This document shows positions 6,717 through 22,825 of a DNA stretch of 22,825 nt, piece after piece; position 1 is the first letter of the stretch, and each line of letters begins with the position of its first letter. This DNA is from a candidate division WOR-3 bacterium (lineage in GTDB: Bacteria; Hydrothermota; UBA3072; B12-G15). The DNA lies in contig CBFGJG010000029.1 of the NCBI GenBank assembly GCA_965649055.1, positions 1-22,825 on the forward strand, given 5' to 3'. A program made the position numbers and the translations under genes. The notes under the pieces were generated by a model that had not been told where the DNA came from, searched no databases, and saw nothing but the letters and a program-made list of their open reading frames with translations.

Positions 6717-6935
6717 ATGGAAAAGGAAGTTCAAAGGGTTCTTGAAAGAATAAGAAGTATTTTAAGAAGGGATGGTGGGGATATAAGACTTATAAGTGTA
6801 AAAGATGGCATTGTTAAGGTAAGGTTTGAATACGCTTGCAGAGGTTGTCCATCAATGAATGATACTTTAAGAAATATTGTTGAAAAAGAAATAAAAAGAG
6901 AAATCCCTGAGATTAAAAGAGTTGAAGCAGTTTAA
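6717..6935 (+). CDS. NifU C-terminal domain (Nfu-type) Fe-S carrier protein
   Basis: 72 aa, IRSILRRDGGDIRL...ACRGCPS (Nfu CxxC); has RBS and promoter. Confidence 0.9.
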   Translation: MEKEVQRVLERIRSILRRDGGDIRLISVKDGIVKVRFEYACRGCPSMNDTLRNIVEKEIKREIPEIKRVEAV

Positions 6936-8506
6936 TACCTGAAACTGCTCCCACCAATAAATTCCCTCAATATTGAAGTAGGTGGAATTTCATCTTCAGA
7001 TATTGGAAGGAAATGATTCAAGAAATTTAGCAATCTCAATGCTTCACAATAATATTCATCATCATAAGTTATAGACCTTAAAGGAGTTTCAACATAATTC
7101 TTTAAAACTGCAAGTTCATAAACAAGTGAGGAATTGAACATAACATCTGCGTTTTCTTGGAATTTGAAGATATGTTCTTCTTCGCCCTTTATTACACTCT
7201 TCCATCTTGCAAGTGTAACAGCGGGTGGATTCCCGCGAAATAAAGTATCCCTAAAAATCCTTCTTATCAGTCTTACATCCCTTGTTGGTATTCTGTTCAG
7301 GCTATTGATATTAAGTTGAGTCAATGCGCTAACATATATTTTAAATTTTAATTCTTCTTTTATTGACTCTGTTAAAAGAGGATTCAATGAATGTAATCCT
7401 TCAATAATTATAACCTCATCCTTTTCAAGTTTCATTTTATTACCATTCCATTCTCTTTTTCCCTTTTTAAAATTAAATGTTGGAATTTCAATTTCCTCTC
7501 CCTTTATCAGACTCGTAAGGTGTTTATTAAAAAGGTCCAAATCCAACGCTTTTATAGAATCAAAATAATAAGCACCTGTTTCATCTCTTGGTGTCTTATC
7601 TCTATCAACAAAATAATCATCAAGACCTATCACCTTTGGTTTTATTCCGTTTACTCTGAGATGTACACCAAGCCTCTTTGAAAAAGTTGTCTTACCAGAA
7701 GAACTTGGTCCAGCTATAAGTATTATCTTTGATTTTCTTTTAGTAATTTCGTCTGCAATATAAGCAATCTTTTTTTCATGAAAAGACTCTGCTACCTTTA
7801 TTATATCAGATATTCTGTTGGAAACTATAGCGTCATTCAATTCTCCAACACTTCCAATTCCAAGTATTTCAGCCCATTGATTTGATTCGTTATAGGTATT
7901 CAGCAATTTCGTCCTTTTTTCTATCTTTGATAGCCTGAAAGGATCTTCAGATGATGGCAAAATAATAAGGAATCCATTATCAAGTTCTTTTATGTGAAAA
8001 ATCTTTATAAATCCAGTTGAAGGTAGTAACGGTCCTGCAAAATATCTCATATAATTATTAAGGCAATAGATTGGAATAAATTCTTTTGAAAGGTATTTTA
8101 TAGTATTAAAATCTTCTATGCTCCCATCCTTCTTAAAGATGTTCATAGCCTCTATCTTGGATACCCTTGTTTCAACAATTCTAACATCATCTTTTATGAC
8201 TTTTAGCATCTCTTTCTTTACTTCTCTAAGGTCGAGTTTCCCTTTTACAATTTCTCCAAATAATGCCCCACCAAATGAATGCTCTATCTTAATTGTGCAA
8301 TTATGTTTATATGCTATATAAGAAAAAAGAAATGATAAAGTCCTTTCATATGTTCTCACACCTTCTCTATGAGACATATCAATCAGTTTGAGGGAGCCAT
8401 ATGATGGTATATAAGAACCAAGACCAGTATAGATATTATCTACAAGTGCAAGTGTAGTTGGATATTTAATATCTTTCAAAATATTTATAACATTCTTTTC
8501 ATTCAT
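6932..8506 (-). CDS. Long-form nucleoside/uridine kinase family protein with ThrRS-like N-terminal region
   Basis: Walker A IAGPSSSGKTT, LDDYFVDR, IIEGLHSLNP, RLIRRIFRD, FNSSLVYEL and SILREFIGGS, typical of the ~550-aa Udk-like family. Confidence 0.88.
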   Translation of the reverse strand: MNEKNVINILKDIKYPTTLALVDNIYTGLGSYIPSYGSLKLIDMSHREGVRTYERTLSFLFSYIAYKHNCTIKIEHSFGGALFGEIVKGKLDLREVKKEMLKVIKDDVRIVETRVSKIEAMNIFKKDGSIEDFNTIKYLSKEFIPIYCLNNYMRYFAGPLLPSTGFIKIFHIKELDNGFLIILPSSEDPFRLSKIEKRTKLLNTYNESNQWAEILGIGSVGELNDAIVSNRISDIIKVAESFHEKKIAYIADEITKRKSKIILIAGPSSSGKTTFSKRLGVHLRVNGIKPKVIGLDDYFVDRDKTPRDETGAYYFDSIKALDLDLFNKHLTSLIKGEEIEIPTFNFKKGKREWNGNKMKLEKDEVIIIEGLHSLNPLLTESIKEELKFKIYVSALTQLNINSLNRIPTRDVRLIRRIFRDTLFRGNPPAVTLARWKSVIKGEEEHIFKFQENADVMFNSSLVYELAVLKNYVETPLRSITYDDEYYCEALRLLNFLNHFLPISEDEIPPTSILREFIGGSSFRY

Positions 8507-10019
8507 TGACCATTATCACCCTTTCTTTATAAAAATATGCCACATTGTTTCTGCATATCTCTTTTACTTTATACATTGCAATATCAGCATTTCTAATTAA
8601 TTCTTCTTTGTTCTTTGCATAGTTGGGAAATGAAGACACACCAAAACTTGCCCTTATTCTAACCCTGCATTTTTTTGATATCTCAAAATCTTTTTCAGCA
8701 AGCTTTTTTCTCAAAAATTCGGCAAAATTAATGGCATCCATCAATTCAGTCCTTGGTAGTATCAGTATATACTCATCGCCACCATACCTAACTGATATAA
8801 CACCATCAGGAAGATATTTTTTTATCCTCTTTGCAACAAGTTGTAATGTTTTACTGCCTACAAGATGGTCATATTCATCATTAACCCATTTAAAATGGTC
8901 AATATCCATAAAGATTAATGAGACTGGGTATTTTTTCTCTTTTGCATCAATTAGTATTTTTTCAAGTGGTTCTTCAATAAAGCGATAGTTGTAAAAACCC
9001 GTTAAATCATCTTTATATGCAAGTTCTAATATTCTATTATATAATTTTGCGTTTTCAATTGCTATTGTGAGCTGGTTTGCAACCTGAAGAAGAACATCAA
9101 CCTCTTCTTTATTAAAATCATAATTTTTTAAACTCCCAATATCAATAACTCCAAGTATGTTACCTCTTTTCTTCAGTGGAAGGTATAATTCAGATTTTGT
9201 CTTTAAAATACTTTTATCTTCAGGTATATTATTTACAATAATAAAACTTTTTTCTTTGCGGATATTTTTAATGACATCTTTCTGTTCGAAATAATTTATG
9301 TCAATTTTAAATCCTTTTGAAATAGAAAAATCACCAATCAATCTATCATCTGTAAAGACACCTATATAAACATAATGATAGTTAAAGGCATCTCTTATAA
9401 TCTCTGCACTTTTTTTTAATAATTTACTAATTTCAAGAAATGATGTTATATTTCTGTTTATTCGAGAGATTAAGGTTAAATATTTTATCTTCTGATTAAG
9501 TTTTTTCACAAGTGTTGCATTTTCAAAAGCAAGTGCTGCTTGTTCAACATAAGTTTTAACTAATTTTAAGTCATTATTACTAAATTCTGATTCTCCCTTC
9601 TTATTTATAATTTCAATGACACCAACGAGATTTCCTTTACTGATCATCGGTATTGCAAGTATGGATTTTGTTTTGAATTTACTTTTCTTATCAATATCGG
9701 AAAAAAACCTTGGATCTTTACTTACATCGGGAACCAGAATGGGTTTTTTGTTCTTCACAACCCAACCTACTATTCCTTTATCCTTAGGTATTCTTAAACC
9801 TGTTAATTCTTCCTTTTTTTCACCAAAAACATCATAGAATATCAATTCATTCGTAGATTCATCTATAAGAAATAATGTCCAAGCTTCAGCCTGTATAATT
9901 TCAGATATATTCAGCATTATTATATGTAGAATTTCATCAATTGTTTTCCTTGGTGAATTTATAGCTTTTATTATCTCTGCGGCTATTTCGAATTCAGATC
10001 TCATCTTTTCTTTCTTCAA
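8499..10019 (-). CDS. GAF-GAF-GGDEF dinucleotide cyclase; Hypr-type (candidate 3',3'-cGAMP synthase)
   Basis: Two GAF domains, then DDLTGFYN, MDIDHFKWVND, HLVGS, RYGGDEY, SFGVS and ADIAMYKVK. The track start is TTG at 10019; in-frame ATG at 10004 is an alternative. The domain call is firm; product specificity is inferred. Confidence 0.9.
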   Translation of the reverse strand: MKKEKMRSEFEIAAEIIKAINSPRKTIDEILHIIMLNISEIIQAEAWTLFLIDESTNELIFYDVFGEKKEELTGLRIPKDKGIVGWVVKNKKPILVPDVSKDPRFFSDIDKKSKFKTKSILAIPMISKGNLVGVIEIINKKGESEFSNNDLKLVKTYVEQAALAFENATLVKKLNQKIKYLTLISRINRNITSFLEISKLLKKSAEIIRDAFNYHYVYIGVFTDDRLIGDFSISKGFKIDINYFEQKDVIKNIRKEKSFIIVNNIPEDKSILKTKSELYLPLKKRGNILGVIDIGSLKNYDFNKEEVDVLLQVANQLTIAIENAKLYNRILELAYKDDLTGFYNYRFIEEPLEKILIDAKEKKYPVSLIFMDIDHFKWVNDEYDHLVGSKTLQLVAKRIKKYLPDGVISVRYGGDEYILILPRTELMDAINFAEFLRKKLAEKDFEISKKCRVRIRASFGVSSFPNYAKNKEELIRNADIAMYKVKEICRNNVAYFYKERVIMVNE

Positions 10020-12486
10020 GAATAACTTGATATACTATTTTTATTCTTCCTTTTTCCGTAATAAAATCTCCATTCTCCTGAATATCAAACTCAAAATTAG
10101 CAGGATTTATTACAAGCTGTTTACTCTTATCAAGTTCATCAATATAATAAATTCCGGCTCTTTTTATCCTGCATCCTTCAAAATAGTACTCTCTTTCATC
10201 CTCTCTCATTTTTAGAATTTGCAAAAGTTTATCCGAAATATCTTTTTCAGTCATTTTTGTTTCAAACTCCTTGAACAGAGAAAATCTTTCAACATTCAAT
10301 ATTATATTTATTAATGTAGTATGATCTATAAGAATAACAGACCTTTCCTTTGCTTTGCCGGATGAAAAGACACTTGCTTCGTGAACAAGAAAACCTGTAA
10401 TATCAGGATCACCAAAGGAATTTGGAGTAAATACCATATCTCTCTGAGGTAATCCACTGACAATTCCAACACCAAGTTTGAAAAGGGATTTAAATTCAGG
10501 TGGTAGAAGTGCATATGTCACTCCTTCATGTAATAGTTCTTTTTCCGCAATTTCACCGAACCATTCCCTATAGTTTACGTAATTCTCCTTTACAAAATCT
10601 TCTGCAGATTGAACGATACCAATAGCAGTTTTTAAAGCCTTGTATCCAGAATTTGGGTCTTTTAATATTGCAAATTCATCCTCAACTGCTGTAGAAAATC
10701 TTATACTTAGATTTTCTTTTAACATAAAAGTTTTAAAGATATCATTATACAATTGATTTGAATTACCGCCAAACCATATAATTCCGCCATCGCCTATTTC
10801 TTTAAGTAAAAAACCTCCACCTTTTTTAGCATTATTCAATACAGCATAATTAAATTTATTCATTATCATTCTTTGTTTTTCTGCATCTTTTAGGCGATGA
10901 GCCATAAATGTTGAACCCCTTATATCATATATCAAAACAGTTACGACAGAAGAAAAATTTCTCGTTAGAATATTTCCTATTTTCCTATTTTTTTCAATAA
11001 TTGCAGCAGAAATCTTCGGTGTTATTTTACTTGATTTTGAAAATCTATGGAATTTACCAGAAGGTAAAAGCTCAATTCCAACAAGATGTAATGCATCCCT
11101 TGCATCAAGTAATGTTTTAGGATTTTGAGAATCTACTCTTGGTGGCCATACGAAAAGTAAATCCGATACTATCTTGTAAGAAACCATAGGCTCAAAGATG
11201 TTTTCAAATATTGCACGGTAATTTTTTAAAACCTTAACAGGGTCAATAATAACATTTTTCTTTGAACGCTCAACAAGTGTTTTGAATCTATCCGGGTCCT
11301 TTTTATATTCTCTTAGAAATATCTTCTGAATATTCTTCAACACATTGGGCTCTATTATCTCAAAATATTTATCAGATTTCCAGTTATTTATCACAAAGTC
11401 CTCTATCTCCCAATCAGAACCTTTAGGTAAAAATGCCTTGAGTTTTTCTGATGTTATATTCTGTAATTCTCTATTTTCCTGTATACTTCTTCCCACCTCA
11501 AGCATCTTTGATGTATATCCTCTGAAAAGTTTTATGTGGAATTTAATCCTCTTCATCATATTCAGTATTGCATCCTGAGTTCCGTCTATTGCCTTACTTA
11601 TATCCCCTTTTAAACTTATATCAAGAACATCTTGCAATTCATGTAAAGATTTTTCGATAATATTTTTTGTTTCGGTTTTAACCTTTAATGATAGCATATC
11701 AAGTTCTTTATCTCTTTCCCTTAGAATTTTTTCATTTTGTTTGGCTTTTAAAGACACTAATTTTGCAAATTTTACTTGGGTGTCTTCTGAAAGAGGAAGG
11801 AATTGTTCGAATGGGAAACTGTTTAAGTCTGAAAAATCACTTATCTGTGTTGATTCGAGTAATTTAATTATATGTATGTCTTCCCTTTTGATAAAACTAT
11901 CCATTATAATTTTATTTACCTCACGGAAGATTGATGCATCAAAATCATAATTTTTCAATAATCTATTAATATCTTCGAGTGTTACACTTTTTATATTAAC
12001 ACCTAAGAAGTAAGGTCCTTTGTGAAAAAAATCAAAAACCTGTTTTTCTGTTGCACTTAAATGCTGGGTGGACTCAACAAAAATCTTTAATATTTTAGAA
12101 CCAAAATTTAAGGATTCATCAATAGAACTAAATATAGGTGGAAATACTTTCATAAGGAATGCCTCAAATAATAAAGCGAATTCGGATGAAAATGAAAGTA
12201 TATTATTGTAAACATCACTTACAATCTTTGAAACTTCTTCTGCACTTCCGGAAACTGCAAAAAGTTTCATTTTTTCCTCTGTTGATAATTCAACAACTAT
12301 ACTTTCGTCAAAGGTTGATAAAAACTTGATAAAAAAATCTGGAAGTTTTCTTATATCAAAGCATCTTTCTAATAACTTTTTATTCTTTAGGAATGTATCA
12401 CTTTTTACAAGGTTTTTTTTTAAATTTATTATATAATTACTTGATAACTCTGCGGAAGATTCTATATCAGATAGTTTTACTATCAT
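9994..12486 (-). CDS. 830-aa soluble protein: helical N-terminal region plus divergent class III nucleotide-cyclase-like C-terminal domain
   Basis: VTVLIYDIRGST (D521), KEIGDGG (K562, D566), LGVGIVSG, PDITGFLVHEAS (D695) and ILID, in the order of class III cyclase motifs; paralogous to the 21269 gene. Confidence 0.7.
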   Translation of the reverse strand: MIVKLSDIESSAELSSNYIINLKKNLVKSDTFLKNKKLLERCFDIRKLPDFFIKFLSTFDESIVVELSTEEKMKLFAVSGSAEEVSKIVSDVYNNILSFSSEFALLFEAFLMKVFPPIFSSIDESLNFGSKILKIFVESTQHLSATEKQVFDFFHKGPYFLGVNIKSVTLEDINRLLKNYDFDASIFREVNKIIMDSFIKREDIHIIKLLESTQISDFSDLNSFPFEQFLPLSEDTQVKFAKLVSLKAKQNEKILRERDKELDMLSLKVKTETKNIIEKSLHELQDVLDISLKGDISKAIDGTQDAILNMMKRIKFHIKLFRGYTSKMLEVGRSIQENRELQNITSEKLKAFLPKGSDWEIEDFVINNWKSDKYFEIIEPNVLKNIQKIFLREYKKDPDRFKTLVERSKKNVIIDPVKVLKNYRAIFENIFEPMVSYKIVSDLLFVWPPRVDSQNPKTLLDARDALHLVGIELLPSGKFHRFSKSSKITPKISAAIIEKNRKIGNILTRNFSSVVTVLIYDIRGSTFMAHRLKDAEKQRMIMNKFNYAVLNNAKKGGGFLLKEIGDGGIIWFGGNSNQLYNDIFKTFMLKENLSIRFSTAVEDEFAILKDPNSGYKALKTAIGIVQSAEDFVKENYVNYREWFGEIAEKELLHEGVTYALLPPEFKSLFKLGVGIVSGLPQRDMVFTPNSFGDPDITGFLVHEASVFSSGKAKERSVILIDHTTLINIILNVERFSLFKEFETKMTEKDISDKLLQILKMREDEREYYFEGCRIKRAGIYYIDELDKSKQLVINPANFEFDIQENGDFITEKGRIKIVYQVILEERKDEI

Positions 12487-15998: not shown

Positions 15999-16540
15999 AA
16001 TTTATCATCCTTGCGAATTATGAATACACCTTCTTTACCATCAACCTCTTTAATTAAAACTGATACATTCTCATTTTCACCACATTCAACTATCTTTCCT
16101 GTAAAGTCTGGACAAATTGGTAATTCCCTTCCTCCTCTATCAATGACAACCAAAAGAAATATTCTTTTAGGTCTTCCAAAATCTATTAATTCGTCTATTG
16201 CTGCTCTTATTGTTCTTCCGGTATAAAGAACATCATCAACAAGCAAAACCACTTTACCGTCAATCGAAAAATCTATTTCAGTTGTTCCTATCAAAGGTTT
16301 TGGGCCAACAGTAGACAAATCATCTCTATAGAGTGTGATATCAATAGCACCAAAATCAATTTTTAAATTTGTCTTTGTTTTCAAAATCCTCATTATTCTT
16401 TTAGCTATTATATCACCTCTATTTTTTATACCTATTATGCAGATATGTTCGTATTTATCTTTAAAACTATTTATAACATCCATAGAAAGGTTTGTTATAA
16501 TCCTTTCTAATTCTTCATTATTGAAAATTATTTTTTCCAT
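15995..16540 (-). CDS. pyrR: Bifunctional pyr regulator / uracil phosphoribosyltransferase PyrR
   Basis: GIKNRG, DITLYRDDL, LLVDDVLYTGRTIRAA (PRPP motif) and DRGGRELPI; directly upstream of pyrB. Confidence 0.95.
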   Translation of the reverse strand: MEKIIFNNEELERIITNLSMDVINSFKDKYEHICIIGIKNRGDIIAKRIMRILKTKTNLKIDFGAIDITLYRDDLSTVGPKPLIGTTEIDFSIDGKVVLLVDDVLYTGRTIRAAIDELIDFGRPKRIFLLVVIDRGGRELPICPDFTGKIVECGENENVSVLIKEVDGKEGVFIIRKDDKL

Positions 16541-18603
16541 TTAAACTGAATCGGTATTGTTTGTTCCATCTTTGTTGGAACACCGTTAACCTTTCCAGGG
16601 ATAAACTTCCATTTCATCGCTGTGTTTATTGCTTCCTGATCACATACACCACCACCAAAACTCTTTACAACTTCTGCTTTAATAACATTTCCATTTTCAT
16701 CTATCAAAACCTTTACAAAAACTGTCCCTTCAATCCCCAATCTTTTTGCAGCATCAGGAATTGTAGGCATAGCAACTTTTTCAGGTTTTGGGAGTTCTAT
16801 CTGTTCCTGTTTTTGTTCAACTATAGTTGTCTCTTTCTTCTCTTCCTTTACCTCTTGAACAGGCTGTTCGGTTGTGGTAGCCACTGGTTTTTCTTCCTTT
16901 TTCTCAGTAGGTTTTATTGTATCTACAGGCTGTGATAATAATTTTCTTGTCAAAACATCTTCTGCCGTAACAGTCGTTACTATCTTCTTCACTGGCTGTA
17001 TATTTGAAGTTTCCCTGAAATGTTTACCAAGTTCACGAAATGCAACTTCAGTTGAAGGTCTTGAGGATGTTGGAATATATATTTCATCAATTTTTTCAGA
17101 AAGTAATCTTTTATCCATCCTGTCAATACCTTCAATACCGTCCCTAACAAATGAGATATTTGAAGCAACATAGAGGAATGTGTAAGGAATATCTTCAGCA
17201 ATAATCCTCTGAAATTCAGACCATATCTTTTTACTTTCCTTTCTATCAAGTGTTAATATACCTTTCTCAATAAGTTGGTCTATCTGTGGATTATTATATT
17301 TTACAAAATTGTAACTTCCTGTAGAGCTCCATATTGGTGCAGGTTCAAACTCTTTTGAGATATTCCACGAAAGGATAAAAGCTGAAAAATCTCCTTTTTC
17401 AAGTCTTGTAATAAATTCAAGTGTATTTAATTTTTTTACACTTGACATTACACCTATTTTCTTTAAATAACTCGATATCATTTCAGCAACTGCGACTTTG
17501 ATAATATCATTTTGATCAACAAGTATCTCTATATTTAGATTATCAAAATACTTATCCCTATTTTTATCAATATATCCAAGTGATTTGATTATTTCGATAG
17601 CCTTATCCGGATTATATCCAATTGTAAGACCTTTCACCCCATCATCAAACGCCCAGTGATTCTGAGTTATCGGACCGTAGGAAAGTTCTCCGGAACCTTG
17701 TAAAATTTCCTGTATTATCTTCTGTCTATCTATTGCCATAGTTAATGCAGTTCTTAGCCTTTTATCTTTAAACTGACTTAGATTCCAACCAATAAATGTA
17801 TAACTATTGCCTGGTTCGATTATTGTCTTATAATTTGGAAGATTAACTTCTTTTATCCTGTCCGGTGGAAAGTTTAATACAATATCAATATTTCCTAATT
17901 TCATCTCATCTATCAACTCATCAATTGATAATGGAAACCAGAATACAATTCTATCTGCTAATGGTCTACCATAAATATAATTTTCATTGGCAACCAGTTC
18001 TATGTATTCACCTTTTTTCCATTCAACAAGCTTATATGGTCCTGAAGTTATTTCAGGAATTTCTTTAAATTTTTGTTTTCCCAGCTCTGACTCCAAAAGT
18101 TTCGCAGGTAAAGGGAATATATTTGAATTTAATATTTCATCTGCGTATATCATTGTAAATTCAAACTGGATTCCATTATTACCTACGGGTTTTACATTCT
18201 TGATATATTTCAATCTTCCAATGAGAGGGTAATTATTTTTCGGATCTTTCATCACCTCAAATGTTTTTACAACATCTTTTGGTGTTATTGGTGTTCCATC
18301 ACTCCATTTACTATTTTTATCTATATAGTAAGTAATCTTCGTAAGGTCTTCAGAAAATTCCCATCCTGATGCGATACAGGGCATAACTTTTCCATTCTTT
18401 TCAATCTTATGCAAGGGAGAAAAAAGAAGATATGTTACAGGTGAGTAACCTGTAATTGGTGGATAAATTGGATTCAGGTTTGTAGGTTCATCAAGACTTG
18501 CAATTATTAGCGTTCCACCTTTTTCACCTTTATACGTAAACTTCTCTTCCTTAACACATGAGAATAAACCAAAAACAAAAAAAACTATCCAAAGTTTTTT
18601 CAT
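16528..18603 (-). CDS. Lipoprotein: family 5 (OppA/DppA-like) solute-binding domain fused through an E/K/P/T-rich linker to a TonB C-terminal domain
   Basis: Lipobox MKKLWIVFFVFGLFSC; SBP5 motifs KWSDGTPITPKDV, SGPYKLVEW and LRTALTMAIDRQ; C-terminus AKRLGIEGTVFVKVLIDENGNV..WKFIPGKVNGVP..IPIQF is TonB_C-like. Confidence 0.85.
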   Translation of the reverse strand: MKKLWIVFFVFGLFSCVKEEKFTYKGEKGGTLIIASLDEPTNLNPIYPPITGYSPVTYLLFSPLHKIEKNGKVMPCIASGWEFSEDLTKITYYIDKNSKWSDGTPITPKDVVKTFEVMKDPKNNYPLIGRLKYIKNVKPVGNNGIQFEFTMIYADEILNSNIFPLPAKLLESELGKQKFKEIPEITSGPYKLVEWKKGEYIELVANENYIYGRPLADRIVFWFPLSIDELIDEMKLGNIDIVLNFPPDRIKEVNLPNYKTIIEPGNSYTFIGWNLSQFKDKRLRTALTMAIDRQKIIQEILQGSGELSYGPITQNHWAFDDGVKGLTIGYNPDKAIEIIKSLGYIDKNRDKYFDNLNIEILVDQNDIIKVAVAEMISSYLKKIGVMSSVKKLNTLEFITRLEKGDFSAFILSWNISKEFEPAPIWSSTGSYNFVKYNNPQIDQLIEKGILTLDRKESKKIWSEFQRIIAEDIPYTFLYVASNISFVRDGIEGIDRMDKRLLSEKIDEIYIPTSSRPSTEVAFRELGKHFRETSNIQPVKKIVTTVTAEDVLTRKLLSQPVDTIKPTEKKEEKPVATTTEQPVQEVKEEKKETTIVEQKQEQIELPKPEKVAMPTIPDAAKRLGIEGTVFVKVLIDENGNVIKAEVVKSFGGGVCDQEAINTAMKWKFIPGKVNGVPTKMEQTIPIQFKWKK

Positions 18604-18608
18604 AAATA

Positions 18609-18649
18609 CCTCCTTTTTTATATTTTAAAACACTAAAAAAATTTGTCAA
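18609..18649 (-). promoter_or_regulatory. Sigma70-type promoter (TTGACA-N16-TAAAAT) and RBS AGGAGG for the SBP-TonB/pyr operon
   Basis: TTGACA at 18649-18644 (overlapping the valS TGA stop), TAAAAT at 18627-18622, AGGAGG at 18614-18609, ATG at 18603. Confidence 0.7.
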
Positions 18650-21261
18650 GTAATTACACTAATATTTTTTAGCAGTCTTTTTAATTTTTGTATTTTTTCT
18701 TTAAAATATTCCTGTTTTTCCTTCATATTTAAAACAACTTCAGGTGGTGCTTTCTTCTGAAACATTTTATTCTTTAGTTGCTCCTGTATTTTCTTTAACT
18801 CTATATCTATTTTTTCAAGTTCCTTAGTTATCCTTTCCCTTTCTTTGTCAAGATCTATAATATCCTTCAGCTGTATATATACATCAAGACCTTTAAGTGC
18901 AAAAAAAACAAATCCACTGTTTAAATTTCCTATTTTGATATTTTTTAAACCTGCCAAATTCATAATCCATTTCGATTCCTTATTCAATAAATCAATGAGT
19001 TTTTTATCACCTTCAATAAAACAGGTTAGTTCCATATCGGGTTTAATACTGAAATCACCTCGAACGTTTCTTATATTAACAACAAAATCCTGTAATATCT
19101 GGAATTCTGATTCCAAATTTTCATCCATAAGGTGTTTTTCAAATACTGGCCAGTTTGATTCAAAAAGAAATTTTTCCCTGTGTATTCTATTGAAAATTTC
19201 CTCTGCTATACAGGGAGTAAAAGGATAAAGCATCTTAAGATAATTCTCTAAAACCCACAAACTAACACTTATCACTCTTTTTCTATCGTTTTCATCCCTT
19301 AAATATACTTTTATTATTTCAAGATACCAATCACAAAAATCAGACCAGAAACCATCAAATATCTTCCTTGCCGCATCATTCACCCTGAATTCATTCAATG
19401 CTTTTTCAACGTATGAAATATTCTTCATTGTCTTCGAAATAATCCAGCTATCGGCCATTGAAAGATTATATCCTTCTATAATTGGCTCTTCGTCTTTCCT
19501 ATTTAAACTTATAAATCTATATGCATTCCATATCTTGTTAAGAAAATTTCTACCAGTCTCAATACTTTTTTCTTTATAGATAACATCCTGTCCCTCGGGT
19601 GTTATAAGTATTATACCTATCCTCAAAGCGTCAGAACCATAATTGGATATTAAATACATAGGATCAACTGAATTACCAAGTGATTTAGATAGTTTTCTTC
19701 TTTTTTCATCCCTTACCATTCCATTGAAATATACATTCTTAAATGGAATATCTTTCATAAATTCCAGAGATGCCATAATCATTCTTGCAACCCATAAAAA
19801 GATAATATCCCAACCAGTCACAAGGACATCGGTTGGGAAAAATTCTTCAAGGTCTTTTGTTTTTTCTGGCCAACCAAGTGTTGCAAATGGCCAGAGCCAT
19901 GATGAAAACCAGGTATCAAGAACATCTTCATCCTGATAAACATTTTTTGAAAAACATTTTGGACAGTCCTCTACTTTTTCTTTAGAAACCACATAATTTC
20001 CACAATCTCCACAGTAATAGACGGGAATCCTGTGCCCCCACCATAATTGACGAGAAATCGGCCAGTCAATAATATTATCAATCCAATGAAAATAAACCTT
20101 CTTCCATCTCGGTAAATAAAACTTGATTTTCCCTTTTTCTACAACCTTCCTTGCCTTAATACCAAGTTCTTTCATTGAAACAAACCATTGTTTAGAAAGA
20201 TAAGGTTCAACTATTGTGTCACATCTTTTACAGTGACCAACATTATGAATGTATGGCTCTATTTTTTCAAGAAGGCCTGTATTTTCCAATTCTTTTATTA
20301 TTTTTTCCCTTGCTTCAAATCTATCATAACCTGCAAATTTACCACCATTTTTATTTATTCTACCATTTTTATCAATAACCTGAATAAATTCCAGTCTGTG
20401 TTTCTTACCTATTTTGAAATCAAGTGGGTCATGCGCAGGTGTAACCTTCACAGCACCTGTTCCAAATGAAACATCAACCGCTTCATCAGCAATTATTTTT
20501 ATATCTCTTTCAACAAATGGAACAATAGCAAATTCACCAACCAGCCTTTTATATCTTTCATCGTCAGGATTAACAGCAATAGCTGTGTCACCTAACATCG
20601 TTTCTGGTCTTGTTGTAGCAACAGTTATATAGCCACCCTTTTTAAGTGGATATTTTATATACCATAGTTTTCCATTTACTTCTATATCCTGAATCTCTTC
20701 ATTAGAAATAACAGTCATACAGGATGGGCACAAATTCACAATGTATTCGTCTCTATAGATCAATCCTTCTTCATATAATTTCACAAATGCCTCAAGAACC
20801 GCATTAACATACTTTTCGTCAAGCGTGAATCTCTCTCTCGTCCAGTCAACTGCAAGACAAAGTCTCTTCATCTGTGTAGAGATTCTTTTGTGATACTCCC
20901 GTGTCCAATCCCAGCAAAGAGATACAAATTTTTCTCTTCCCACATCAAACCTTGTTAGATTCTGTTTCCTTAACTCATTCTCTACTTTTCCGCTGGTAGC
21001 GATACCTGCATGATCAGTCCCGGGCAACCATAACACTTCATAACCTTGAAGTTTTTTTGATCTTATAATAATATCCTGTAATGTTAGATTCAGAACATGG
21101 CCAACGGTTAAAATGCCGGTAACATTTGGTGGGGGTATTACAATCGTAAATTTTGGTTTTTTACTTTCTGGGTTAGCAACAAAGACCTTATTTTTTTCCC
21201 AGATAGTAATCCATTTTTTTTCTGTTTCCTCTGGATTATATCTTGTTGGAATATCGTTCAC
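18646..21261 (-). CDS. valS: Valine--tRNA ligase
   Basis: PPPNVTG, PGTDHAGIAT, ATTRPETMLGD, GTGAVKVTPAHD, ISRQLWWGHRIP, DVLDTWFSS, KLSKSLGN and a C-terminal coiled coil; GTG start with GAGG RBS. Confidence 0.97.
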   Translation of the reverse strand: MNDIPTRYNPEETEKKWITIWEKNKVFVANPESKKPKFTIVIPPPNVTGILTVGHVLNLTLQDIIIRSKKLQGYEVLWLPGTDHAGIATSGKVENELRKQNLTRFDVGREKFVSLCWDWTREYHKRISTQMKRLCLAVDWTRERFTLDEKYVNAVLEAFVKLYEEGLIYRDEYIVNLCPSCMTVISNEEIQDIEVNGKLWYIKYPLKKGGYITVATTRPETMLGDTAIAVNPDDERYKRLVGEFAIVPFVERDIKIIADEAVDVSFGTGAVKVTPAHDPLDFKIGKKHRLEFIQVIDKNGRINKNGGKFAGYDRFEAREKIIKELENTGLLEKIEPYIHNVGHCKRCDTIVEPYLSKQWFVSMKELGIKARKVVEKGKIKFYLPRWKKVYFHWIDNIIDWPISRQLWWGHRIPVYYCGDCGNYVVSKEKVEDCPKCFSKNVYQDEDVLDTWFSSWLWPFATLGWPEKTKDLEEFFPTDVLVTGWDIIFLWVARMIMASLEFMKDIPFKNVYFNGMVRDEKRRKLSKSLGNSVDPMYLISNYGSDALRIGIILITPEGQDVIYKEKSIETGRNFLNKIWNAYRFISLNRKDEEPIIEGYNLSMADSWIISKTMKNISYVEKALNEFRVNDAARKIFDGFWSDFCDWYLEIIKVYLRDENDRKRVISVSLWVLENYLKMLYPFTPCIAEEIFNRIHREKFLFESNWPVFEKHLMDENLESEFQILQDFVVNIRNVRGDFSIKPDMELTCFIEGDKKLIDLLNKESKWIMNLAGLKNIKIGNLNSGFVFFALKGLDVYIQLKDIIDLDKERERITKELEKIDIELKKIQEQLKNKMFQKKAPPEVVLNMKEKQEYFKEKIQKLKRLLKNISVIT

Positions 21262-21268
21262 ATTAACC

Positions 21269-22825
21269 TCACTCTTTAATAATTATCTTGTAAACAGACC
21301 TTTCCTTTTCAACCTTGCTATCATATATTTTCTTGTATATTGCACTACCCGTAAATTCACCTTTTATCATAACATCTTGCAGGCTCTCATCTTCGTCAAT
21401 GTAAACCTTTGAAAAAACCTTATTAATTACCATCTTATACTTTTTTATAAGGTATCTTCCTTTAAGTCCTTGATACCAGTTTTTCATCTCTTTTAAATAT
21501 ATATCATCGGTAAATGATTGTGAAAACTTTTCATCCTTTACTTCTTCAGGAAAAAATTCCTCAAGTGTAACAAGGAAGCTTAAAAATGTATTTAAGTCAA
21601 TAATTATAGTGGATTCATCTTTTTCTCTCACTTTTGAAAATAGATTTGCTTCTCTGACAAGATTTCCTGTAAGATCGGGCTCTTTAAATTTGTTTATGCA
21701 GAATGAAACATCTTTTTGTGGCTCACCTGATGCAATACCAATACCTACCTGGAATATTCTCTTTATTGAAGGAGGAAGTTCTTCGTAAGTAATTCCACCA
21801 AACTGGAGTTTGAAACCTTCAATCTGTCTAAACCAATCTTCATAGTTTTTAAGGTTTTCTTTAACAAAATTCTTTGACTCTATCACCATATCACGAGCAC
21901 ATAGAACTGCATTTTTTGCCGAAAGCCCTCCTTCAACGAGCATTAAATTTTCTATATCTATGTCTTCCTTTCCGCTCCTGTATTGCATAAAGGAAGTATA
22001 AAGTTCATGACTGTTTCCAGAGAAGAGAATAATCCCACCATCCCCGGTATCCTTAATCGGGAAACCACCATATTTATAAACTACATTTAAAAGCCTTTCC
22101 TGGAATTTATTTCTTATCTCCTCTTCTTTTTTTGCATTTCCTAACTTAAAACCCATAAAACTTGAACCCCGAATATCATAAACGAGAACAGAAACATTAT
22201 TAACAATTTTAGAAAGTGCTTCTTTTTTTTGAATATTCCTGCTTTCTAATTTAATATCAGGGAGTAGGAAAACCCCTCCTTCCCTTCCTCTTAGTCCAAC
22301 CCATCTTGCCTCTTCAAGTGTAGTCTGTTTATATTTGATTACTGGCCATATTTCAATCATCATCTCAATAATTTTGGAATAAACTGTAGGTTCAAAAACA
22401 TCAATATAAAATTTTTTCATATTCTCAATAATTGTATCATAATCAAATTCTGTTCTAAACATCTTCTTGGATAAATAAGTTTTCGGTATTTCAGTTTTTT
22501 TCTTATCAAGGGATTTAAAAATTTCATTTAATAATTCTATTGAAAGCAACCTGTCAATATCATGACAGATAAAATTCAATAAATATGAAAGGTTATAACT
22601 CTTTAAACCTTTCTTAACCCTTCCATCAATTTCCTGTTTTATGCCCCTGAGAGCACCGATATTAATCTTTATAATATCGTTAAGCCTGTCCAGTCTTTCT
22701 ATTAGTTCTATTGTTGAAAATTTATCTAAATCCACTAATAATTGATTAAAGATTTCTTTCAATCTGTTCTTTGTATTTTGTAAATTCAATTCAGACAGGT
22801 TATCTTTTTCACTTATTATTTTGTA
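21269..22825 (-). CDS. Paralog of the 830-aa protein with a divergent class III cyclase-like domain; probably 5'-truncated by the window edge
   Basis: VSVLVYDIRGSS, KDTGDGG, VGIGIASG, PDLTGNLVREAN and IIID. The frame stays open from the TTG at 22789 to base 22825 (YKIISEKDNLSE), so the true start is probably outside the window. Confidence 0.7.
   Translation of the reverse strand, partial: YKIISEKDNLSELNLQNTKNRLKEIFNQLLVDLDKFSTIELIERLDRLNDIIKINIGALRGIKQEIDGRVKKGLKSYNLSYLLNFICHDIDRLLSIELLNEIFKSLDKKKTEIPKTYLSKKMFRTEFDYDTIIENMKKFYIDVFEPTVYSKIIEMMIEIWPVIKYKQTTLEEARWVGLRGREGGVFLLPDIKLESRNIQKKEALSKIVNNVSVLVYDIRGSSFMGFKLGNAKKEEEIRNKFQERLLNVVYKYGGFPIKDTGDGGIILFSGNSHELYTSFMQYRSGKEDIDIENLMLVEGGLSAKNAVLCARDMVIESKNFVKENLKNYEDWFRQIEGFKLQFGGITYEELPPSIKRIFQVGIGIASGEPQKDVSFCINKFKEPDLTGNLVREANLFSKVREKDESTIIIDLNTFLSFLVTLEEFFPEEVKDEKFSQSFTDDIYLKEMKNWYQGLKGRYLIKKYKMVINKVFSKVYIDEDESLQDVMIKGEFTGSAIYKKIYDSKVEKERSVYKIIIKE

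Follow-up and report, generated by a model that had tools for sequence, protein, structure and literature searches.

A divergent class III cyclase-homology family with complementary arginine sets and a linked GAF-GGDEF gene in candidate bacterial phyla

Class III nucleotide cyclases are defined by six catalytic residues. Whether a domain that has lost two of these can still be a working cyclase is the question raised by an 830-residue protein from an uncultured hot-spring bacterium of candidate division WOR-3. Its gene lies on the minus strand of a stretch of 22,825 nucleotides (contig CBFGJG010000029.1, positions 1 to 22,825), referred to here as the window. The protein belongs to a family that splits into two clades, A and B, and the window carries one gene of each, the 830-residue protein being the clade-A member. 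As judged from its predicted structure, the C-terminal part of this protein is a real but very divergent adenylyl-cyclase-type domain. We propose, with about even confidence, that it is an active, probably adenylyl, class III cyclase with a relocated arginine, and that it would feed the GAF-GGDEF enzyme encoded by the adjacent gene. As the family has four of the six residues, has lost the Asn/Arg pair and has a conserved arginine at another place, it offers a natural test of the contacts that catalysis needs, and would extend the sequence rules by which cyclases are called active or 'pseudo'.

Fold and active-site residues of the clade-A protein

An AlphaFold model of residues 420-830 (predicted local distance difference test, pLDDT, 82.7; predicted template modelling score 0.82) was compared with solved structures. 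The top 50 Foldseek matches were all class III cyclases (best E value 8.5e-8). Alignment with CyaB (3r5g) by VIA-align gave a Z score of 18.4 and a root-mean-square deviation of 2.7 over 184 of 195 residues, covering model residues 95..407, and 50 cyclase entries scored Z 15.7 or more. The class III cyclase fold that had been suspected from sequence alone, and for which a fold comparison had been recommended, is borne out by these matches. Since the VIA alignment reaches model residue 407, the entire C-terminus (approximately residues 513-825) appears to be a single cyclase domain interrupted by four insertions; two of these separate beta3 from beta4 (576-612 and 632-668), and two lie ahead of the last strand, beta8. 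The original prediction had placed the domain at 10300..10950. A cyclase domain does lie there, but its true span is 10012-10950, past the earlier 3′ limit, because the last strand (residues 813-823) belongs to the domain.

Residue equivalences were taken from an hhalign comparison of two profiles, A1 (39 family members) and A3 (seven canonical cyclase domains from the same genome), which aligned with a probability of 96% and an E value of 4e-9 over 149 columns. YDIRGS pairs with F.DI.GFT, and K..GDGG with K..GDaiM. D521 and D566 fall on the canonical metal ligands, K562 on the specificity lysine, and D695 on the Thr/Asp position three residues ahead of the Gly in 'GD.VN.A.R'. Positions 702 and 706 pair with the Asn and Arg of VNxAxR; the window protein has His and Val there, in agreement with the earlier claim that H702/V706 replace the canonical pair. 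Translation confirmed each residue that had been named (D521, K562, D566, D695, H702 and V706) and the interval of 45 residues between D521 and D566. D695, H702 and V706 all lie within DITGFLVHEASV. The two metal aspartates, at the end of beta1 and in the beta2-beta3 turn, would be placed in one site by topology and by the alignments. The features of the clade-A gene, with positions in the window, are as follows.

9994..12486, minus strand: gene of the clade-A protein (P0001), 830 amino acids, from the open reading frame list and translation
11230..12486, minus strand: all-helical N-terminal region, residues 1-419, with a long helical hairpin at about 234-342, as modelled
10951..11229, minus strand: linker, residues 420-512, with helices, a short hairpin and a helix leading into beta1, from the secondary structure of the model
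10012..10950, minus strand: class III cyclase-homology domain, residues 513-825, with four insertions, from VIA, Foldseek and hhalign
10924..10926, minus strand: D521, first metal Asp, at the end of beta1 in YDIRGST, from translation and alignment
10789..10803, minus strand: K562-E-I-G-D566 (in KEIGDGG), the base-specifying Lys and second metal Asp in the beta2-beta3 turn, from translation and alignment; by direct translation the K562 codon is 10801-10803 and the D566 codon 10789-10791
10651..10761, minus strand: insertion 1, residues 576-612, a short helix and a beta hairpin, from the hhalign template gap and the model
10483..10593, minus strand: insertion 2, residues 632-668, an extension of helix alpha3 (NYxxYRxWF) and the loop EGxTYALLPPEF, from alignments
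10567..10569, minus strand: R640, the invariant Arg of clade A, from translation and the 90-row alignment
10477..10479, minus strand: K670, at the canonical beta4 Arg position, from alignment
10402..10404, minus strand: D695, at the adenine-specifying Asp position, from translation and alignment
10369..10383, minus strand: H702-E-A-S-V706, helix alpha4, at the canonical Asn and Arg places, from translation and alignment; by direct translation the H702 codon is 10381-10383 and the V706 codon 10369-10371

By its fold, its two metal aspartates and its Lys/Asp specificity pair the domain is of class III. Of the alpha4 Asn and the Arg four residues on it has neither (His702, Val706), and the curated model PF00211 finds no match in the sequence, the domain being reached by profile methods only. 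Scans of the clade-A protein and of its paralogue against Pfam and NCBIfam returned no family at E ≤ 1. A single-sequence phmmer search of the PDB gave CyaB alone, with a weak E value of 0.41, and the A1 family profile matched CyaB with E 0.004.

Insertion 1 is not present in canonical cyclase domains, where hhalign leaves a gap in the template. Insertion 2 is the best-conserved stretch across the family; its loop (model residues 227-242) is modelled at pLDDT < 50. K562 and D695 are separated by 133 residues, compared with 74 in L003, a canonical domain of the same genome, giving about 59 extra residues. The insertion described in the original prediction, including the segment VKENYVNYREWF...GVTYALLPPEFK, is present, as is DIRGST...KEIGD, but its size had been given as about 50. 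The absence of a transmembrane segment also held up, since the highest 19-residue Kyte-Doolittle mean in the protein is 1.53, at residue 104, which indicates no clear membrane span.

The N-terminal half had been described as about 500 helical residues without a sensor. No known sensor domain was found there by Pfam, Foldseek, VIA or ESM Atlas, but the separate helical region covers residues 1-419 only; the linker 420-512 is conserved with the paralogue, to which the BLASTP alignment begins at residue 419. Residues 1-430 are modelled as all-helical with a long hairpin (pLDDT 88.6). Foldseek gave no match to this model at E ≤ 0.001, the best being helical proteins of the AhlC/YaxA type with template modelling scores ≤ 0.3. 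A wide VIA search returned generic helical hairpins only, at Z ≤ 10.9, which is uninformative for helical models. No usable match to residues 1-500 was found in the ESM Atlas, and no Pfam family in the N-terminal region. The N-terminal 420 or so residues thus appear to be a region without known fold or family match.

Two clades with complementary arginines

Family relatives numbered 261 at E ≤ 1e-3 among 7959 candidates. A precomputed Pfam domain was attached to none of the 120 matches listed, among which at least seven were named 'class 3 adenylate cyclase' by JGI and at least one 'adenylate/guanylate cyclase domain-containing' by NCBI. When 1.84 billion cluster representatives were searched exhaustively with phmmer, 46 matched at E ≤ 0.001; so few matches indicate that the family is small and closed. 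It is confined to Stahlbacteria, TA06, WOR-3, Cloacimonadota and Edwardsbacteria-type genomes, and its genomic loci were drawn from Stahlbacteria, TA06, Cloacimonadota, Edwardsbacteria, UBP2 and other records of metagenome-assembled genomes. Because Pfam and NCBIfam do not see the family, cyclic-nucleotide signalling is under-annotated in the genomes to which it is confined. Within the window's own phylum, as grouped by the search tool, it occurred in 62 of 151 sampled genomes, with a distribution that is patchy by taxonomic family.

The window's genome has two family copies, both on the same contig. It also holds 11 PF00211 matches at 8 loci, which are canonical cyclase domains, and six matches to domains binding cyclic nucleoside monophosphates (cNMPs). 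Three of the canonical loci (L009, L010 and L007, on contigs C22, C62 and C48) have frames of 927-1385 amino acids with two PF00211 matches each, and these tandem domains may act as intramolecular pseudo-heterodimers. Another canonical locus, L006, contains an in-frame TAA.

Conservation was examined in an alignment of 88 family reading frames from the genomic loci of the family together with the two window genes (90 rows, 57 of clade A and 33 of clade B). D521, R523, K562 and D566 are kept in 57/57 clade-A and 32/33 clade-B rows, the remaining row being a fragment with gaps at these positions. N689, D695 and S716 are kept in all 90 rows, and N635, W642, F643, P662, P663 and D721 in at least 88 (D721 in 89). 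Neither Arg nor Lys occurs at position 706 in any of the 90 rows. In-frame TGA codons in two orthologues proved to be ordinary stop codons read through by the search. The basic residues around the site divide between the clades as follows.

Position 542: clade A, K 30, L 11, I 8, M 6, R 2; clade B, Arg 32/33
Position 640: clade A, Arg 57/57; clade B, Arg 0/33
Position 670 (canonical beta4 basic residue): clade A, Arg 55, Lys 2; clade B, Gln 32, Arg 1
Position 702: clade A, N 24, D 13, S 10, A 8, G 1, H 1; clade B, Arg 33/33

The clade-B paralogue of the window has the R542, Q670 and R702 equivalents.

21269..22825, minus strand: clade-B paralogue, ending at the window edge, with a 740-residue open frame in the contig and valS next to it

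In a maximum-likelihood tree of 89 rows (one fragment dropped), built without columns 640 and 702, clades A and B lie on opposite sides of one branch with a value of 99 in the Shimodaira-Hasegawa-like approximate likelihood ratio test. Rows from Cloacimonadota and Stahlbacteria are found on both sides, which indicates that the duplication is old. Among the loci listed, which come from 58 assemblies, both types were present in at least 30, A only in 26 and B only in 2. When five of the 'A only' genomes were searched again, two had a second copy of type B and three were single-copy. In the phylum survey several taxonomic families were two-copy throughout and others single-copy. Nine single-copy or weakly matched survey genes comprised six A-like genes from families f21 and f30, in which the loop is shortened, one of type A (f10) and two of type B, these last from G010 and from G153, whose family (f15) is otherwise two-copy. 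Single-copy genomes with an A-like gene are G001, G002, G005/G012, three of f21 and three of f30; G010 has a B-like gene. This occurrence of each type by itself is an argument that both can act as homodimers, every site then having one arginine.

The canonical Asn702 is present in 9/9 single-copy A-like genes. Degenerate residues at 702 (D, S, A, and the His of the window) are restricted to lineages in which B is present as well, which hints at a heterodimer in those lineages, although only about four independent changes are involved. The two-clade structure with complementary arginine sets, the occurrence of both types alone, and the decay of Asn702 beside the sister clade are the new observations of this analysis; a literature search, confined to main texts, found no description of the family or of cyclases without the Asn/Arg pair.

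A third, single-copy subtype (loci L095-L100; genomes G053, G068, G103, G088, G113 and G130) keeps R640, R670 and N702. In place of the EGxTYALLPPEF loop it has no more than a short link, 'PPLK' or 'KPLK'. A GGDEF gene comes next in all four of its six genomes for which downstream DNA was examined.

The coupled GAF-GGDEF gene and its surroundings

The gene that follows the clade-A gene encodes a protein with two GAF domains and a GGDEF domain, and its start overlaps the cyclase stop (TTG at 10019 or ATG at 10004, against TGA at 9994-9996).

8499..10019, minus strand: partner gene, GAF-GAF-GGDEF protein of 506 amino acids, from Pfam

A relative of this GGDEF gene lies directly after the clade-A gene on the same strand at 50 of 57 loci, scored within -100..+900 nucleotides, and the GGDEF partner was next at 5/5 further single-copy loci, one of them of type B. 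Overlaps of stop and start recur at family loci. When 15 diverse downstream reading frames were scanned with Pfam, ten had GAF and GGDEF domains, with a second GAF or a receiver domain ahead, and one was REC-GAF; of the remaining four, one was a UvrD-type helicase, one a PRK-family protein and one a KaiC-type ATPase, and one had no family assigned. At 18 loci the order is B, A, GGDEF, with B directly upstream of A and stop and start overlapping.

GAF-A of the partner has as its best solved matches the cNMP-binding GAF domains of 5w10 (1.4e-24), which we take to be the Lcd1 structure, CyaB2 (1ykd), PDE5, PDE10A and PDE2A, and the single GAF of the REC-GAF-GGDEF form has the same cNMP-binding matches. 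In the GGDEF domain a Ser occupies the guanine-reading Asp position (hlvGS, as in 6d9m, versus hdiGD in PleD), and the motif is GGDEY. According to the part of the source available (PMC6456294), a Hypr enzyme is marked by a Ser that replaces the base-recognising Asp (Ser348 of GacA) together with GGDEF rather than GGEEF. The sequence of the partner carries this signature. At the base-reading position 41 partner genes (loci L011-L066) have Ser in 28, Gly in 13 and Asp in none, and GGDEY is found in 40 of them. As the canonical guanine-reading Asp never occurs, the product may not be cyclic di-GMP. Lcd1 is described as a cAMP-activated GAF-GGDEF enzyme (PMC8846402) and GacB as a cAMP-activated Hypr GGDEF enzyme with a GAF domain (bioRxiv 10.1101/600031), as far as the available portions of these sources extend. 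The receiver-domain forms of the partner have Asp for the sugar-face Asn (VDD for VND).

The neighbourhood in the window consists of pyr genes, PmbA/TldD, the GAF-GGDEF gene and a PRK-family gene. The genes pyrR-pyrB-pyrC lie upstream in the window and at 22/71 related loci, and one further, short locus has pyrB-pyrC only. The linkage is missing from Cloacimonadota, from Edwardsbacteria/UBP2 and from operon-type Stahlbacteria loci, and, being limited to some lineages, looks like inherited gene order. A pyrimidine cyclase was dropped as the preferred interpretation on the same ground.

Other genes of the window were noted in passing. After the GGDEF gene, at 6932-8506 on the minus strand, lies a gene for a 524-residue protein with a PRK/uridine-kinase domain at 261-459 and a 250-residue N-terminal part without a Pfam match; it stands in the same place at 15 related loci (L011-L022, L025, L026 and L023), of which L023 has the PRK-family gene and is missing the GGDEF gene. 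The clade-B paralogue at 21269-22825 is directly upstream of valS (18646-21261, minus strand), an order kept in 12/33 clade-B rows from Cloacimonadota and Stahlbacteria-type genomes, which are most of the B genes outside the operons. A 691-residue protein (16528-18603, minus strand) has a family-5 solute-binding domain (SBP_bac_5, E 9.8e-70) and, beyond a linker rich in Glu, Lys and Pro, TonB_C (E 1e-19) at its C-terminus, an unusual fusion. The sole long plus-strand gene (132-1523) encodes a very hydrophobic multi-pass membrane protein of 463 amino acids with no Pfam match at E ≤ 1e-5.

Proposed relay, alternatives and known systems

In the mechanism that we propose, D521 and D566 would hold the metals, YDIRGS would form the phosphate-binding loop, K670 would be the basic residue of beta4, and K562/D695 would make the adenine-type pair. 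The lost alpha4 Asn/Arg pair would be replaced in clade A by the invariant R640, on the family-specific extension of alpha3, contacting the phosphates in cis. In the ferredoxin-like core beta4 runs beside and antiparallel to beta1, so that the alpha3-beta4 connection should start at the subunit's own metal/phosphate corner. An alpha3 extension lying over this corner could allow R640 to assume the phosphate contact of the lost Arg, and R640 is thus a candidate substitute whose place in three dimensions follows from fold topology. In clade B the corresponding role might be taken by the Arg at 702, which would sit on the same face of the helix as 706, one turn ahead of it. The product would be a cyclic nucleotide, most likely cAMP; the cNMP-type GAF of the translationally coupled partner would read it, and the partner would then make a cyclic dinucleotide. 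The conserved pairing with a cNMP-type GAF-GGDEF protein bearing a non-canonical base-reading residue makes such a two-messenger relay directly testable.

Several observations weigh against this proposal. The Arg at the position equivalent to 706 is catalytic in canonical class III cyclases, and an enzyme without it might turn over slowly or not at all. The window copy is among the most deviant of clade A, with Lys670 and the only His702 in 57 rows. The place of R640 relative to the nucleotide is deduced from the fold, and the loop that follows it is the poorly modelled one. Seven of the 57 clade-A genes have no GGDEF neighbour. The canonical cyclases at eight loci of the genome could supply the GAF ligand instead, and GAF domains bind other ligands too, so that best matches do not settle the ligand. 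For His702 there is a precedent in Rv1900c, which is active with His at the Asn position according to the accessible part of PMC4886424. The invariance of the site residues across candidate phyla, the alternative invariant Arg and the coupling to a cNMP-type GAF-GGDEF gene together favour a working cyclase with a relocated arginine over a dead domain. The original prediction had offered different chemistry, a nucleoside triphosphate sensor or the need for a partner; that range is narrowed by the same argument, and a partner keeps its place in it because a paralogue with the complementary arginine set is encoded about 9 kb away.

Such a partnership, which we consider possible although on balance doubtful, would make A and B of the window's genome an asymmetric heterodimer with one complete site, to which A would contribute D521, D566, K670 and R640 and B the Lys, the Asp and R702. 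The second site, arginine-poor (metals and Gln670 of B; Lys/Asp and His702 of A), would bind nucleotide or a regulator. Mammalian C1/C2 and soluble guanylyl cyclase follow this logic of two paralogues and one complete site. The arrangement would refine a relocated-arginine cyclase rather than exclude it, and it agrees with the complementary basic residues (R640 and R/K670 in A; R542, R702 and Q670 in B), with an old duplication of which both copies are kept across the same phyla, with the joint presence of the types in most of the assemblies listed and the recovery of B in two of five re-searched 'A only' genomes, with the 18 loci where B overlaps A, and with the restriction of degenerate 702 to genomes that hold B. 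However, neither protein has lost a metal Asp or the Lys/Asp pair, so that homodimers are possible; A-only and B-only genomes exist, so that pairing is not obligatory; Asn702 is kept in some lineages with both types (L011, L012, L024, L027-L032) and its decay amounts to about four independent changes; and the two window genes are not adjacent. An extended form, which we regard as speculative and unlikely, makes A and B halves of the C1/C2 type: A would provide metals, phosphates and the cis R640, B the base contacts and R702 in trans, the second, arginine-free site would be an allosteric sensor, and cAMP would act on the translationally coupled Hypr-like GAF-GGDEF enzyme, which may make cGAMP or another mixed dinucleotide. 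Uncultured phyla would then have a hard-wired relay leading from a cyclic mononucleotide to a cyclic dinucleotide.

It is also improbable, in our estimate, that the domain is a pseudo-cyclase that binds metal and ATP with no or very slow turnover and switches the GGDEF enzyme or another target by contact. The universal loss of the Asn/Arg pair (Arg706 in 0/90) would fit, a conserved overlapping gene pair suits a protein complex as well as a relay, the large conserved insertions could serve as interaction surfaces, and cyclase and GGDEF domains have a common palm-like fold. Yet the invariant metal Asp, Lys/Asp pair and clade-specific Arg exceed what ligand binding usually needs, a diffusible ligand is suggested by the cNMP-type GAF domain that is conserved in the partner, and, besides the seven clade-A genes, nearly all clade-B genes lack a GGDEF neighbour. 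We think it very improbable that the working enzyme makes something else, such as cGMP, a pyrimidine cNMP tied to pyrR-pyrB-pyrC and the uridine-kinase-like gene, or a non-cyclic product. The pyr genes upstream, the PRK/uridine-kinase family gene after the GGDEF gene, the presence of the cUMP synthase 7r65 among the structural matches (Z 16.8) and a rewired site that leaves specificity open speak for it; against it, a Lys/Asp specificity pair marks class III cyclases that take adenine, the pyr linkage is confined to certain lineages, 7r65 matches no better than adenylyl and guanylyl cyclases, and no PADLOC model for Pycsar was matched.

Of known systems, CyaB of Pseudomonas aeruginosa (3r5g) and CyaC of Spirulina (1wc1) share the fold most closely (Z 18.4 over 184 aligned residues and Z 18.2 over 181), and have in common with the clade-A domain the metal Asp pair, the P-loop, the beta4 basic residue and the specificity Lys. 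Unlike them, the clade-A domain is below detection by PF00211, has about 59 extra residues between beta3 and beta4 and two insertions before beta8, and the protein is without the alpha4 Asn/Arg, has the invariant Arg on the alpha3 extension and carries a 510-residue N-terminal region of unmatched fold. The mammalian C1/C2 domains (1azs/1cjk) and the alpha and beta chains of soluble guanylyl cyclase (Z 16-17.8) are complementary paralogous domains, as are A and B, whose arginine sets may show how asymmetric cyclase heterodimers originate. In contrast to C1 and C2, A and B both keep the metal Asp and Lys/Asp residues, only the arginines being divided; they are separate proteins, each sometimes found alone, and their heterodimerisation is a proposal.

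Pycsar PycC (7r65) has the same fold (Z 16.8). A Pycsar role found no support, as the clade-A protein, the paralogue and the GGDEF gene gave no PADLOC match and the locus has housekeeping neighbours, no adjacent effector gene and the Lys/Asp specificity pair. Rv1900c of Mycobacterium tuberculosis (1ybt/1ybu, Z 16.0), shares His at the Asn position (PMC4886424, in the part available). The family has Arg706 in 0/90 rows, and the architectures are unrelated. DUF2652 is likewise a divergent class III branch that has kept the metal Asp and lost the Asn; from the same part of that source (PMC4886424) it is a single-domain protein of about 250 amino acids, with the Arg kept, from Actinobacteria, Bacteroidetes and Proteobacteria. 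The clade-A protein, at 830 amino acids and with no match to the DUF2652 Pfam model at E ≤ 1, falls outside it. Closest to the proposed relay are Lcd1 of Leptospira interrogans and GacB of Myxococcus xanthus, which combine a cNMP-type GAF with a GGDEF domain as the partner does, the partner having Ser at the Hypr position. The portions of the sources available for these two enzymes mention no dedicated adjacent cyclase gene, whereas here a cyclase-homology gene is joined to the GAF-GGDEF gene in a conserved pair with translational coupling.

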